Of a stretch of DNA of 64,000 nucleotides, positions 24,531 through 31,398 are shown piece by piece. The stretch is taken from assembly GCA_013360215.1 (NCBI GenBank), contig JABWCP010000008.1:62001-126000 (forward strand), written 5' to 3'. The translations under genes and the position numbers were made by a program. The first letter of the stretch is position 1. Every line of letters starts with the position of its first letter. Below the pieces are notes generated by a model, which ran no database searches, was not told the origin of the DNA, and was given only the letters and a program-made list of their open reading frames with translations. This DNA is from a bacterium. GTDB taxonomy: Bacteria > CLD3 > SB21.

Positions 24531-24544
24531 ATGATTTATATCAT
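24531..24544. promoter_or_regulatory. FNR/Crp-family box candidate upstream of the nap operon
   Basis: Palindrome ATGAT-TTAT-ATCAT, resembling TTGAT-N4-ATCAA, 108 nt before napD. Confidence 0.55.
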
Positions 24545-24652
24545 TTTTACCTCTTACTTATTTACATACTTTCGATTGTTATTACTCTTCCATTACCATT
24601 CATATCGAAATTAAAATCGTTAAGCATACATACCATATAAGATAGATGTATC

Positions 24653-24919
24653 ATGCCTGTTAAAAGTTATTTAGCATATCCGATGCAAGATCAACGCGAA
24701 GCGCTTGCCCAAGCGCTGAAAGAATTGCCAAACTGCGAAATAGTTCCATCGGATAATTACGATGTTTTTGTCATCGTAACCGATACATCCGATGATGCGC
24801 AAGAAAAAGAAATAGAAGAAAAATTACTTAAAATCGAAAGCATCCGGTTTCTGAGTTTGGTTTCCGGATACGAAGACCGCACCACTACGAATACGAATAT
24901 GCAAGGAGGCTTGGCATGA
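24653..24919 (+). CDS. napD: NapD-like chaperone
   Basis: 88-aa protein with a ferredoxin-fold-like pattern, overlapping the napA start; the call relies largely on context. Confidence 0.65.
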
Positions 24920-27228
24920 ACCGCCGGGAACTGCTGAAGCACATGGCTACTGTCGCTGCTATGTCCGCAGCCGCATCGTTTTTTCCGGGAATTGTATTTT
25001 CCGGCGAACAAGGTATCGAACGTTTTTTGCCGGATGAAAAATTGGACTGGAAAAAATCGCCTTGCCGTTTTTGCGGAACGGGTTGCGGGCTTCTGATCGG
25101 TATTCAAAACGGTAAAGCCGTCGCTGTCAAAGGCGACCCGGCCAGCGCCGTCAATCGCGGCTTATGCTGCATCAAAGGTTATCACTCTGTGATGGCGTTG
25201 TACGCCAAAGACCGCCTTACCAAACCGCTCATCCGGAAAAACGGACAGCTTGTCGAAACTACAATGAAAGAAGCGCTCGATCTCATCGCGCAAAAGATGA
25301 ATGAATGCATTGACAAAAACGGTAAAGATTCGGTGGCCATTTACGGTTCCGGTCAGTGGACCGTACCGGATGGTTATGTCGCCTCCAAATTTATGAAAGG
25401 CGGTATCGGCACCAATAATCTTGAGTGCAACGCACGTCTGTGTATGGCCAGCGCCGTAACCGGTTTTATGACGACATTCGGTCAGGATGAACCGATGGGT
25501 TGCTATGAAGACATTGATCATGCCGATGTGTACATCCTCTGGGGCAACAATATGGCCGAAATGCATCCGGTGCTTTTTTCCCGAATGCTTGATAACCGCC
25601 TCCGCCGCGGCGCCAAAATTATTGATTTCGCCACACGTACCACACGTACCAGTATGGCCGCCGATAAATCAATCTTATTCAAACCGCAAACCGATCTTGC
25701 TGTCGCCAATGCCATCGCCTACGAACTGATACGCACAGGCCGTATCAATCAGAATTTTATTCAAAAACACACGACGTTCAAAAAGGGTAAAACGCAAATA
25801 GGATATGGTTTAGAAGATAAGTTTGCATTCCAAGATGAACCGCAGGGTGCTTCGTTGGAGGAATACAAAAAATTTCTTGAAGACTATAAACCCGAAATCG
25901 TAGAAAAAGTTTCCGGGGTTTCGGCATCCGATATTCGTTATCTGGCGTCATTCTATGGCAATGCCAATAAAAAGGTTACCAGTTTTTGGTGTATGGGAAT
26001 GAATCAACATACACGCGGCACATGGATTCAAAACCTCGTTTATAACATTCATTTGCTGACAGGAAAAATATCTACGCCGGGAAACAGTCCCTTCTCGCTC
26101 ACCGGCCAGCCCAGCGCCTGCGGTACGGCCCGTGAAGTCGGTTGTTTTACACATCGTTTGCCGCACGGCGAAGTAACCAATGAAAAAGACCGTCAACACG
26201 CGGCTGAAATCTGGAAAGTTCCCGTTGAAAAAATCCCTGCCAAACCTACATATCACACCGTTGAAATGTTTCGCGCTCTGGATCGCGGGGATATCCGTTT
26301 TATGTGGATACAGGTTACCAATCCGATGGTGACCATGCCCAAACTGAAACGTTATCGCGACGGTGCCAAAAAAGAAGATCGTTTTATCGTCGTCTCCGAC
26401 GTCTATCCGACGCCGACCACCGACATCGCCGATGTGATTTTGCCCAGCGCCATGTGGATTGAACGCGAAGGCATGTTTGGTAACTCCGAACGACGCACGC
26501 AGCATTTCGAACAAATGCTGCAACCTCCGGGCGAATGCATTGCGGATGCATGGGCGATGATCGAAGTAGCTCGTCGGCTCGGTTACGGCGCGTTGTTTCC
26601 GTGGGATTCGAAAAACTATGTTGAAGAAATATGGAAAGAATATACGCAGTTTCATCACGGTAAAGATCACGAGATGGCTACGTACGAAATGCTCAAAGCC
26701 AATCCCGGCGTTCTTTGGCCATGTCCCGAGGGCAAAGAAACGAAGTGGCGTTACCATGCCGCCTACGATCCTGCAGCCAAAGGCGATGCGTGGGATTTTT
26801 ACGGCAAACCTGAAGGCAAAGCTTGGATATGGATTCGACCGTATGAACCGCCGCCGGAAATGCCGGACGATGATTACCCGTACTGGCTCAATACAGGGCG
26901 CGTTTTGGAACATTGGCACTCCGGTTCGATGACACGCCGCATCCCTGTATTGCATCAGGCCGTTCCTTCTTCCTACGTGGAACTCAATCCCGACGATGCC
27001 AAAGAACTTGGTATTCGTCATGGCGACAAAGTGCGCCTGACATCGCGTCGTGGCAGCATCGTTATGAGTGCTTCGATCAATGAACGTGGTGTCCCTCCGC
27101 ACGGCATGGTATTCGTTCCGTTTTTTGACGAGTCCCACCTTATCAACGAATTAACTCTGGATGCCTTTTGTCCTATTTCGCGGCAGCCGGATTTCAAAAA
27201 ATGCGCCGTAAAGGTGGAAAGAGCATGA
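24916..27228 (+). CDS. napA: Periplasmic nitrate reductase catalytic subunit
   Basis: Tat signal [16 protein letters not shown]...C FeS motif, [11 protein letters not shown]o ligand, [16 protein letters not shown] and DFKKCAVK. Confidence 0.93.
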
Positions 27229-27923
27229 ACCTCAAGAAGCTTTTGCTCCCTGAAAACCGCGTGATCTTTATCTCACTGAGCGCGCTTCTGATGCTGTGCG
27301 TCATCGTGATCGTGGGACAAAGCGTCATCCAGTCCGGAGCGGAAGCCTACACACCTTCGGTAAAAACACCGGGCGAAGCGGTGCTTCCGGATGAAGCCGG
27401 TGTTTTTAAACAAAGCGATCAGGCGCTTTATTATCTTGAGACACTCCATCAACAGGGTTCTCGCACACTTGCTGCGTTTTATGAGCGCCGGGCGTTTGAC
27501 GGTGCGCCGCCGGTAATACCTCACGAAGTGACAGATGAACGCAGTGTCGGTGGTAACACCTGCTTGCAATGTCATGAAAACGGCGGCTTTGTACCCAAGT
27601 TTAACGCTTATGCTCCGGTATCGCCGCACCCGCAGTTTTTGAGCTGTCGTCAGTGTCACGTACCGGTTACGACGCGCAACGTATTTCGCGCATCGGGATT
27701 TACGCCGGTGAAACCGCCGGCTATCAATCGTTCCGCTCTGACCGGTGCACCGCCGCAAATACCGCATGACCTTCAGATGCGGGAAAATTGTCTGGCGTGT
27801 CACGGTGGGCCGGCCTCCGTTCGCGAAATACGTACACCGCATCCGGATCGCGTCAACTGCCGCCAATGTCATGGAGCTATCGAAGATAATACCGCCTGGA
27901 TCCGTCCGGCGCCAACTCCGTAA
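27225..27923 (+). CDS. Membrane-anchored tetraheme cytochrome c built from two NapB-like diheme units
   Basis: GAPPxIPH...CxxCH...PHP...CRQCH occurs twice; N-terminal TM helix; ATGA overlap with napA. Confidence 0.82.
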
Positions 27924-29753: not shown

Positions 29754-29756
29754 ACT

Positions 29757-31052
29757 ATGGAACATCTTGTTACGCCTGATCTGCCGCATCAAGCGGGAAA
29801 AATAACCGATGACATCCGTCCCGTCATCGCGCGTTCGTTTATTCGCGACGCGTTTGACAGCATCACACGCGGGAGGCCCGGTTATCATATCTGGATGGGC
29901 ATACTGACATTTTTTATGTTGGCCGGCGCCTATGCTTACTCCGTGCAGTTAAGCGAAGGCTTGGCCGTCACGGGTATGAACGATCGCGTGAGTTGGGGTT
30001 TTTATATTTCCAATTTCACCTTTCTTGTCGGTGTGGCGGCGGCCGCGGTGATGCTGGTGTTACCGACGTACATTCTCAAGGATGTTGATTTTTCTAAAGC
30101 CGTCCTGATCGGTGAAGGTCTCGCCGTTTCGGCGCTGATCATGTGTCTTGCTTTTGTGACAGTTGACCTCGGCGGCCCGGGTCGTGCATGGCACTTGATC
30201 CCCGGCATCGGTCGCTTCAACTGGCCAAGCTCAATGCTTACGTGGGACGTACTTGTACTCAACGGTTATTTATTTCTCAATCTTACAATCCCGTTTTACA
30301 TTCTGATGTGCCATTATCAGGGAAAGCATCCCAATCCCAAAGTTTATGTACCCGGTGTCATTATCAGCGTATTCTGGGCGTTCTGTATTCACTTAGTTAC
30401 GGCATTTCTGTACGCCGGTTTGCCGGCGCGACCGTTTTGGAATTCATCGCTTTTAGGTCCGCGATTTTTGGCGTCGGCTTTTGCGGCCGGTCCGGCGCTA
30501 ATCATCATTGTTTTATCCGTCATTCGCCGCTATACGACATATAAGGTTGAAAATGTAACACTGGGAAAAATAGCACTGATCGTAACCGTCGCCGCACAAA
30601 TCAATTTGATCATGCTCGGTTCCGAACTTTTTAAGGAATTTTACAAACCGACGCATCACAGCGAAAGCGCCGTCTATCTGTTCTTCGGATTACATGGTTT
30701 CGGTGCGCTAAAGCCGTGGATATGGACAGCCATCGGATTAAATCTTATTGCTACCGCCATTCTTACACTGAATCCGTTACGCAGTAATCACAAATGGCTT
30801 TTGCCCGCATGCGCTTTGCTTTTTCTAAGCATCTGGATCGAAAAAGGAATGGGTTTGATCATTCCGGGATTTATTCCCGGACCGTGGGGTAAAATCGTCG
30901 AATATGCTCCGACGTGGGTTGAAATTTTCGTCGCGCTCGGTATTTGGGCGATGGGCATGTTTATTTTTACATTGCTCGTCAAGATCGCTATTCCCATCGA
31001 AACCGGTGTTCTGCGATATCAGCCTGCGAAACCTTCACAAACCAAAAATTAA
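29757..31052 (+). CDS. NrfD/PsrC-family (DsrP/QrcD-like) membrane subunit
   Basis: GLAVTGMNDRVSWGFYISNFTFLVG, VDLGGP, SMLTWD and YAPTWVE; about 10 TM segments. Confidence 0.88.
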   Translation: MEHLVTPDLPHQAGKITDDIRPVIARSFIRDAFDSITRGRPGYHIWMGILTFFMLAGAYAYSVQLSEGLAVTGMNDRVSWGFYISNFTFLVGVAAAAVMLVLPTYILKDVDFSKAVLIGEGLAVSALIMCLAFVTVDLGGPGRAWHLIPGIGRFNWPSSMLTWDVLVLNGYLFLNLTIPFYILMCHYQGKHPNPKVYVPGVIISVFWAFCIHLVTAFLYAGLPARPFWNSSLLGPRFLASAFAAGPALIIIVLSVIRRYTTYKVENVTLGKIALIVTVAAQINLIMLGSELFKEFYKPTHHSESAVYLFFGLHGFGALKPWIWTAIGLNLIATAILTLNPLRSNHKWLLPACALLFLSIWIEKGMGLIIPGFIPGPWGKIVEYAPTWVEIFVALGIWAMGMFIFTLLVKIAIPIETGVLRYQPAKPSQTKN

Positions 31053-31056
31053 ACGT

Positions 31057-31398
31057 ATGCCACGCGTTACAAAAAAGAATACACCAAAACGTGCTATCCC
31101 AAAACGTTTCCAGCGTTTTCTGAAGGAGTATCCCGAAGTCGGTAAAGCCTATTCGGCATTGAGTCATGCCGTACAAGATGCCGGCCCGCTAAATGAAAAA
31201 ACCCGAACGTTGATCAAGATCGGTATTTCTGCTGGTTCGCGTCAGGAAGGAGCGCTCCATTCCCATGTACGCAAAGCGCTTGATGCAGGCGCTACGCCGG
31301 AAGAAATTCGCCACACCATTCTCCAATGCCTTCCTACCATCGGTTTTCCAGGCATGATGGCCGCCATGAGCTGGGCGGATGATATTTTGAACGGATAA
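31057..31398 (+). CDS. Carboxymuconolactone decarboxylase (CMD/AhpD-like) family protein
   Basis: GPLNEKTRTLIKI...LHSHVRKALDAGATPEEI...TIGFP; ATG at 31057. Confidence 0.85.
   Translation: MPRVTKKNTPKRAIPKRFQRFLKEYPEVGKAYSALSHAVQDAGPLNEKTRTLIKIGISAGSRQEGALHSHVRKALDAGATPEEIRHTILQCLPTIGFPGMMAAMSWADDILNG

Follow-up and report, generated by a model that had tools for sequence, protein, structure and literature searches.

How does a periplasmic nitrate reductase (Nap) obtain its electrons where neither of its usual quinol-oxidizing partners is encoded beside it? In the textbook view, electrons reach Nap through NapC or NapGH, and Nap is not energy-conserving by itself. The question is raised by a 64,000-nucleotide stretch of a bacterial genome (assembly GCA_013360215.1, contig JABWCP010000008.1, positions 62,001 to 126,000; hereafter the window), in which a napA gene is followed by genes for two tetrahaem cytochromes c (here Cyt1 and Cyt2), an iron-sulfur (FeS) protein and an NrfD-family membrane subunit. 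The analysis presented here makes it likely that this locus specifies both a periplasmic nitrate reductase and a quinol dehydrogenase dedicated to it, a system in which electrons would pass from menaquinol through the NrfD-like and FeS subunits to Cyt2, Cyt1 and finally NapA.

The nitrate reductase and its haem relay

All seven genes that an earlier note on this DNA had read as a tight operon were found where it had placed them, as open reading frames (ORFs) on one strand (24653-31398) with gene spacings of -4, -4, 18, 18, 3 and 4 nt, the 3' end of the napD-like gene overlapping the start of napA by 4 nt (Table 1). NapA scored above the cut-offs of two curated equivalog models (NF010055, 966.7 bits against 904; TIGR01706, 940.4 bits against 930.55), has a twin-arginine start (MNRRELLK) and carries the Fe4S4 (PF04879), molybdopterin (PF00384) and MGD-binding (PF01568) domains, all above cut-off. 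Its best solved relatives were of the NapAB type (3ml1_A, 2nya_A and 1ogy_A; 764-808 bits) and are characterised nitrate reductases. Compared with the family model, the protein lacks about 55 residues, and it matches the model in two stretches (1-557 and approximately 630-830).

Cyt1 was the sole protein in the genome to exceed the NapB family cut-off, giving 37.6 bits with Pfam NapB (cut-off 25.1), its first half being above cut-off; the same half aligned with the NapB structure 1ogy_B (E 2.6e-4). The two halves of Cyt1 align to each other (E 1e-10, 38% identity), and its four CXXCH motifs and four further His residues are invariant among 27 orthologs. Classical NapB consists of one dihaem unit with a PPxIPH motif and two CXXCH, whereas Cyt1 comprises two such units and, as judged from these alignments, is a NapB derivative that arose by tandem duplication of the dihaem unit.

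Cyt2 also contains four CXXCH motifs and four further invariant His residues (H113, H120, H173 and H196; 25 sequences). Its Pfam matches were weak (Cytochrome_C7 and Paired_CXXCH_1), and its AlphaFold2 model (mean pLDDT 70.2) gave no Foldseek match in the PDB at E<=0.001. The lipobox position is occupied by a Cys in 14 of the 25 sequences, but not in the Desulfobacterota members; in the window organism, Cyt2 is probably a lipoprotein. The “8-heme wire” that had been suggested for this operon can be regarded as real, because the CXXCH motifs and the additional His residues, four of each per cytochrome, are invariant in both Cyt1 and Cyt2, and the eight haems are probably all bis-His ligated.

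The FeS protein scored 195.3 bits with the NCBIfam DsrO model, just below its cut-off of 200, and far less with QrcC (149.4 bits, cut-off 400) and NrfC (122.2 bits, cut-off 377.6), its best solved relatives being PsrB (2vpw_B) and the ActB proteins of alternative complex III (ACIII). Its twin arginine is invariant in 24/24 aligned sequences, one canonical DsrO included. The Cys residues fall into four groups (C-x5-C-x3-C; C-x2-C-x4-C-x3-CP; C-x2-C-x2-C-x3-CP; C-x2-C-x11-C-x3-CP) that would suffice for four clusters, one possibly with three Cys ligands. Ahead of the twin arginine lies a stretch of about 77 residues (28614-28850), with protein-level conservation in the window and its three closest relatives (L004, L005 and L006); this N-terminal extension is confined to the window's family and is unusual ahead of a Tat motif. 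The FeS relative in a Lentisphaeria locus (L020) has a different, Cys-rich N-terminal extension.

Other quinol-linked proteins encoded in the genome

The genome to which the window belongs (3.72 Mb in 56 contigs, 100% complete, 0.53% contamination) encodes a single NapA. The best scores found in it for NapH, NapG and NapF were 59.6, 19.1 and 27.6 bits, against cut-offs of 213, 179 and 102, respectively. The absence of napC, napG, napH and napF that had been read from the operon thus extends to the genome, in which no NapG, NapH, NapF or NapC scored above its family cut-off. Two proteins matched the NapC/NirT family (PF03264), both encoded on another contig (C32). One is NrfH (167.6 bits, cut-off 134.2), encoded beside NrfA (597.4 bits, cut-off 595), and the other is a 499-aa six-haem protein encoded beside a cytochrome b-like protein. 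Because NapA and NrfHA are both encoded, the organism looks like a nitrate ammonifier, in which Nap would act first and NrfHA second. Three further NrfD-family modules were seen in the genome (C10:63697-64560, C34:15117-16079 and C38:40447-41358), namely a molybdopterin enzyme with FeS and NrfD-like subunits, an ActC-like ACIII gene, and a set made up of a cytochrome with 13 CXXCH motifs, a Tat FeS protein and a HybB/HmcC-like subunit.

Conservation and distribution of the operon

Relatives of the membrane subunit were searched for in one genome per species across 185,579 species, giving 446 confirmed relatives. The survey was limited to the 80 best loci, and 57 of these 80 have at least 5.2 kb of DNA upstream of the NrfD-like gene. 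In this synteny survey, a check that the earlier note had proposed, the genes for NapA, Cyt1, Cyt2, FeS and NrfD were colinear and on one strand in 56 of the 57 loci, and the 23 shorter loci showed compatible pieces only, nothing conflicting. An ortholog of the napD-like gene was located directly upstream of napA in 53/57 loci (tblastn). The 56 colinear loci come from Thermodesulfobacteriota (25), Acidobacteriota (14), Myxococcota (3) and, with one locus each, Bacteroidota, Chloroflexota, Lentisphaerota, Gemmatimonadota and Pseudomonadota, nine being without a phylum name. The operon type spans at least 8 named phyla, and the linkage of napA to the module is conserved far beyond chance. The proposal of a non-canonical Nap type, with an eight-haem relay and an FeS/NrfD-family membrane module and without NapC or NapGH, is upheld by this linkage. 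The window's own phylum comprises only 20 genomes in the collection; a match to the DsrP model was found in six of them (the window's genome included) and in 5/14 other members of the window's family, where the operon trait is patchy.

The same module also occurs away from napA. With the copy from Paludibaculum as query, a stand-alone sister subfamily proved commoner still, with at least 579 confirmed relatives, and, among the matches listed, the order Cyt2-FeS-NrfD was present in 69/69 loci with enough upstream DNA, with NapA within 6 kb of the module in 0/80 loci. Cyt2-FeS-NrfD is an autonomous three-gene module that is found alone in other genomes. It is very common in this form in Acidobacteriota and others, and in one locus (L208, 7616-10304, minus strand) a gene with a cNMP-binding domain lies directly upstream of it.

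Phylogeny, fold and conserved residues of the membrane subunit

The NrfD-family subunit scored 416.6 bits with the NCBIfam DsrP model (cut-off 350) and 50.7 bits with QrcD (cut-off 570). The approximately ten transmembrane segments predicted earlier agree with 10 hydrophobic peaks in the sequence and with ten long helices in the AlphaFold2 model (pLDDT 76.3, pTM 0.81). Among solved structures, sequence comparison retrieved ActC chains only (6f0k_C with E 3.6e-13, then 6lod_C and 6btm_C), and the top Foldseek matches of the model were also ActC (6btm_C, 6f0k_C, 8k9e_C and 6lod_C; TM 0.67-0.71), followed by ActF and then PsrC (E 5e-3).

A phylogeny of the membrane subunit, also among the checks proposed earlier, was generated by maximum likelihood under LG+C20+F+G4 (PMSF) from 57 rows; 146 candidates had been deduplicated and thinned at 78% identity to 65 rows, after which three outgroup rows, long or gappy, were removed along with five redundant paralogs. 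The Nap-linked proteins formed one clade of 21 rows (support 100/99), consisting of 17 with NapA in view, three with the upstream DNA cut off and one from the only non-colinear locus (L038), and its sister was the stand-alone module protein from Paludibaculum (99/94). Canonical DsrP formed a separate clade (93/95) that joined this Nap-type group at 99/98, and ActC was the next relative of the two together (100/97), with QrcD, HybB/HmcC-like and Psr/Nrf-like subunits distant. A quick LG+G4 tree had left Nap-type versus DsrP unresolved; the mixture-model tree separated the two. The Qrc-like module envisaged in the earlier note does not hold, given the QrcD and QrcC scores and the remote position of QrcD in the tree. 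The FeS and membrane subunits are DsrO/DsrP-like, and the term ACIII-like can stand for the membrane subunit alone, to which ActC is closest in structure and, after DsrP, nearest in the tree.

For DsrP1, the available text of Calisto and Pereira 2021 (PMC8076601) lists 20 residues, four at the quinone site, nine in an N-side and seven in a P-side half-channel. In a check of the numbering, 14 of 15 tested residues in aligned canonical DsrPs matched the published numbers. Across 62 Nap-clade sequences, 17 of these 20 proposed quinone-site and proton-path residues were kept, which answers the call of the earlier note for an inspection of the proton channels. Specifically, the quinone-site residues Tyr83, Asp137, Ser159 and Asp164 (window protein numbering) were present in 62/62 sequences. 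On the N side, 7/9 were kept, with Thr88 in 56/62, Tyr105 in 61/62, Ser204 in 60/62 and Glu120, Tyr171, His212 and Thr215 in 62/62, and on the P side 6/7, namely Arg225, Arg236, Ser/Thr240, Glu290, His301 and the gate Lys363, the last being invariant. The DsrP1 residues Arg152, Lys162 and Thr194 are replaced in the Nap clade. In the HMMER alignment to 6f0k_C, Asp137 corresponds to ActC His139, Ser159 to Ser164, and Glu362-Lys363 to Glu394-Arg395. With the quinone-site residues and most of the channel residues conserved, what has been proposed as the machinery of quinol chemistry and of proton conduction is predicted to be in place.

Relation to known systems

As in canonical Nap, napA is immediately preceded by a NapD-like gene, and its Tat-exported product has a haem partner resembling NapB, but the locus is without NapC, NapG, NapH and NapF and has instead a tandem-NapB tetrahaem cytochrome followed by a second tetrahaem cytochrome, an FeS protein and an NrfD-family subunit. 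Its gene order falls outside the four canonical operon types, napEDABC, napDAGHB, napCMADGH and napAGHBFLD, given in the available part of a 2026 review (PMC13223375).

The locus also resembles the DsrJOP half of DsrMKJOP, in that the membrane subunit shares 41-48% identity with canonical DsrP, together with the 17 of 20 proposed functional residues, and passes the DsrP model, the FeS protein narrowly missing that of DsrO. However, the block is without adjoining DsrM, DsrK and DsrJ and has a tetrahaem cytochrome instead of the trihaem DsrJ. All 21 canonical DsrP rows of the tree adjoin DsrO/DsrJ/DsrK where flanking DNA is present. In 151 Desulfobacterota genomes sampled, the 30 top DsrP matches were all beside DsrO, with DsrJ and DsrK also upstream in 29/30 and the 30th cut off. 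Desulfobulbales with both types have a canonical DsrP in dsrMKJOP scoring 458-462 bits and a Nap-linked paralog scoring 386-400 bits. The DsrP equivalog model itself (NF045798, cut-off 350) gives 386-418 bits with Nap-linked proteins (from the window and from L103, L107, L109, L111 and L114). Because it passes such proteins even in a genome without DsrK and DsrA, neither of which had a match in the 100%-complete genome of the window, automatic naming of Nap-linked proteins as DsrP is likely and constitutes an annotation trap for sulfur-cycle gene surveys.

Alternative complex III (ActABCDEF) resembles the module in the fold and sequence kinship of ActC and in the common route from quinol through FeS to multihaem c. 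It differs in that the FeS protein of the window stands alone, with no ActB fusion, pentahaem ActA or ActD/E/F in the block; moreover, the NrfD-like subunit lies outside the ActC clade, and a separate ActC-like gene is located elsewhere in the genome (L085). The likeness to Qrc (QrcABCD) is one of parts list only (multihaem c, molybdopterin-family, FeS and NrfD-family subunits), since NapA gave 81.8 bits with the QrcB model (cut-off 440), the cytochromes are tetrahaem as opposed to the hexahaem QrcA, and NapA is a catalytic enzyme as opposed to a cofactor-less scaffold. Nothing indicates that NapA would take the place of the cofactor-less QrcB/ActB1, because the NapA encoded here is of the ordinary kind, exported through Tat and accompanied by a NapB-like protein of its own. 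In Escherichia coli NrfABCD, too, a periplasmic multihaem cytochrome receives its electrons from an FeS protein of the NrfC type and a membrane subunit of the NrfD type (PMC8076601, available text), but the NrfC and NrfD models scored the window proteins far below cut-off. The Geobacter Cbc4 complex (CbcSTU), as outlined in the accessible part of a preprint (bioRxiv 10.1101/2025.04.14.648717), has a bis-His tetrahaem cytochrome and the same three-part layout, the comparison being one of architecture only.

A feature-by-feature fit, by description alone, was obtained between Cyt2-FeS-NrfD and the “dsrOhPh-tetrahaem” locus of cable bacteria, some Desulfobulbales and Gamma-/Betaproteobacteria (PMC13047784, BMC Genomics 2026). 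According to the available text of that paper, this locus encodes DsrO and DsrP homologs with a bis-His tetrahaem cytochrome, the DsrP homologs forming a clade near but outside canonical DsrP; it lies away from dsrMKJ, occurs also in genomes without sulfur metabolism, and is described as of “unknown metabolic function” and as a “candidate alternative complex III”, with napA appearing once, in another context. The difference is that the module of the window sits inside a nap operon, a context from which a concrete and testable role can be proposed for modules listed there as of unknown function.

Partial precedents were found in the accessible text of two papers, one describing a NapA operon in Lacipirellula in which the FeS protein and the NrfD-like subunit form a single fusion (PMC6995999) and the other an NrfD-like cluster downstream of nap in two Planctomycetota metagenome-assembled genomes (PMC10732223). 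The clusters reported for Caldithrix, Thermosulfurimonas, Desulfurivibrio and Electronema are of the NapGH or NapM type, the nrfD genes of Deferrivibrio are Psr-like and repressed by nitrate, and the available text of the NrfD-family paper (PMC8076601) makes no mention of Nap. The operon type was not found in the literature searched, which mostly did not cover subscription journals, so that an earlier description is possible.

Presence in RNA libraries

The operon stretch is present in many activated-sludge and sludge sequencing runs. Over window positions 19000-37000, three metatranscriptome runs were compared: X13 and X15, both from a single sample of one study (also the source of DNA run X5), and X17, from a second study, whose differences look like a related strain. 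Contigs from the RNA libraries cover 24666-31390 and bridge every gene junction. Two of them (24719-28360 and 24856-28651) together extend from napD through Cyt2 and into the FeS gene, while others join Cyt2 to FeS (28337-29654), FeS to the NrfD-like gene (29637-29946) and the NrfD-like gene to the downstream CMD gene (29954-31390). Word depth in the RNA contigs was 15-27 over napA to FeS, with only a few short contigs at a depth of 2-5 over the flanking genes, and depth in the DNA run was flat at about 7.4-9.7. This contrast between flanks and operon hints that the signal is not DNA carry-over, contig depth being a measure that cannot rank genes and in which holes prove nothing.

As a separate observation, contigs of DNA run X5 break at 24714/24715 and 31414, almost exactly at the ends of the operon. 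Because of these breaks and the patchy presence in the family, the block could be a cassette that varies within the population, an accident of assembly being just as plausible.

Proposed electron path and alternative explanations

In the proposed path, menaquinol would be oxidised at the DsrP-like membrane subunit of the NrfD family and its electrons passed to the Tat-exported FeS subunit and on to tetrahaem Cyt2. Cyt2 would reduce Cyt1, which would dock on NapA as NapB does and deliver electrons to the [4Fe-4S] cluster of NapA and then to its molybdenum centre, where nitrate would be converted to nitrite; NrfHA, whose genes lie on another contig, could reduce this nitrite further to ammonium. 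The order of the carriers, their assembly into a physical complex and the direction of electron flow are inferred. In evolutionary terms, one clade of the Cyt2-FeS-NrfD module would have been built into nap operons, replacing NapC or NapGH.

Several observations weigh against this path. The NapD assignment of the first gene is below threshold (24.2 bits against a Pfam gathering score of 28), and the RNA contigs can neither prove a single transcript nor exclude DNA carry-over. The stand-alone sister subfamily shows that the module is not Nap-specific, and in the single exception to colinearity (L038, a Desulfobacterales genome) the halves are split by about 0.6 Mb on one chromosome, with Cyt2-FeS-NrfD-CMD at approximately 1.93 Mb and napD-napA-Cyt1 at approximately 2.55 Mb (L245/L246). 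Because of the stand-alone clade and this split, Cyt2-FeS-NrfD could be a general menaquinol:cytochrome c oxidoreductase after the manner of ACIII or Geobacter Cbc4, which would reduce a pool of periplasmic cytochromes supplying Nap, Nrf and other reductases and would be co-transcribed with the nap genes without being bound to Nap. The “dsrOhPh-tetrahaem” locus of cable bacteria, which the available text of PMC13047784 proposes to feed periplasmic cytochromes, would be in keeping with such a role, as would Geobacter Cbc4 with its similar architecture (bioRxiv 10.1101/2025.04.14.648717, accessible part). Against this stand the separate, well-supported clade of the Nap-linked proteins and their colinearity with napA across at least 8 named phyla, such fixed linkage being unusual for a general-purpose module, and the fact that, for other duties, the genome encodes an ACIII elsewhere along with two more NrfD-family modules; a general oxidoreductase is on balance improbable.

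NrfH and the 499-aa six-haem protein could in principle also feed NapA, and an explanation in which one of these NapC/NirT-family cytochromes supplies NapA/Cyt1 would leave the module to serve elsewhere, for instance in reverse electron flow that would carry electrons of periplasmic donors to the quinone pool, relatives such as Qrc being known to run in the quinone-reducing direction (also tabulated in the available text of PMC8076601). However, NrfH is encoded directly beside NrfA, as in canonical NrfHA, and the linkage of the operon is conserved. Furthermore, in 20 other genomes that carry the operon, NapH and NapC matches above cut-off numbered 0/20 each, with any match to the NapC model at E<=1e-10 in 1/20, counts that are limited by the unassessed completeness of these 20 genomes. 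This explanation is very unlikely. Even less can be said for NapA acting mainly on another oxyanion such as chlorate, selenate or arsenate, to which its shorter length and the atypical electron-donor system would point; the two curated NapA equivalog cut-offs are passed, the best solved relatives are nitrate reductases, the NapD-like and NapB-like partners are in place, and the NrfHA of the genome would take up the nitrite produced.

The preferred reading of a Nap with a dedicated quinol dehydrogenase would add a third, phylogenetically widespread input module for Nap, and genome-based predictions of nitrate reduction would misjudge its carriers wherever napC or napGH is made a requirement. 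These include Acidobacteriota, Desulfobulbales and activated-sludge members with the operon in RNA libraries.

Possible energy conservation

Retention of the residues is a necessary condition for energy coupling and not evidence of it. The driving force from menaquinol to nitrate is large. On account of this and of the conserved residues, it may be suggested, as a tentative and rather doubtful proposal, that menaquinol oxidation at the DsrP-like subunit drives proton translocation; this Nap type would then be energy-conserving, in contrast to Nap that depends on NapC or NapGH. With most of the proton-conduction residues of DsrP/ActC kept, the question of an electrogenic periplasmic nitrate reduction becomes directly testable. 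On that proposal, electron transfer from quinol to Nap would also be the first physiological function for the orphan “tetrahaem-DsrOh-DsrPh” family.

Gene coordinates, upstream signals and genomic context

Table 1. Features of the nap operon and its upstream region, in window coordinates.
Feature	Length	Position	Strand	Basis or remark
FNR-like palindrome ATGATTTATATCAT		24531..24544	+	2 mismatches to TTGAT-N4-ATCAA; probably not functional
napD-like chaperone gene	88 aa	24653..24919	+	Pfam NapD 24.2 bits, gathering score 28
napA, catalytic molybdopterin subunit	770 aa	24916..27228	+	NapA equivalog models, Pfam domains, twin-arginine signal
Cyt1, tandem-NapB tetrahaem cytochrome c	232 aa	27225..27923 (most likely)	+	4 CXXCH, N-terminal hydrophobic segment
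Cyt2, tetrahaem cytochrome c	217 aa	27942..28595	+	4 CXXCH, lipobox-like Cys32
Tat-dependent FeS subunit, DsrO/NrfC-like	379 aa	28614..29753	+	Twin arginine at residues 80-81
NrfD-family membrane subunit, DsrP-like	431 aa	29757..31052	+	Pfam NrfD 114.6 bits; presumed menaquinol site
CMD/AhpD-like protein	113 aa	31057..31398	+	Pfam CMD 67.1 bits

The FNR-like box that the earlier note had placed upstream of the operon did not withstand closer examination. Matches to TTGAT-N4-ATCAA with two mismatches numbered 57 in the window against 50.3 expected from shuffles, and the box was not kept upstream of napD in an alignment with three close relatives (L004-L006); the regulatory claim for ATGATTTATATCAT was dropped because its frequency is near chance and the box is not conserved. 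Scans for promoters and terminators were likewise at background in the window (15 against 11.9 expected and 12 against 10.8 expected, respectively).

The CMD gene, also counted earlier as an operon member, is present in the block, but a homolog was found downstream on the same strand in just 2/65 related loci with enough downstream DNA, and the gene is an accessory outside the conserved core of the operon type. The full ORF of the CMD gene extends back to 30904, within the NrfD-like gene, the start in Table 1 being the likelier one. Two distant loci of Desulfobacterales also have a CMD/AhpD-like gene immediately after the NrfD-like gene (L038, 9240-9536, and L066, 6143-6439; 45-47% identity), but close relatives of the window have none in this position, making it a recurrent but rare add-on.

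No mobile-element genes were found among the window ORFs scanned. The operon is taken to be chromosomal because the remainder of the window is housekeeping in nature, with genes for CysS, DusB, FolC, acetyl-CoA synthetase and an Lhr-like helicase. Just upstream of the operon, on the minus strand (21231-23987), lies a gene for an ADOP-family duplicated permease of 918 aa with a permease-prefix domain.

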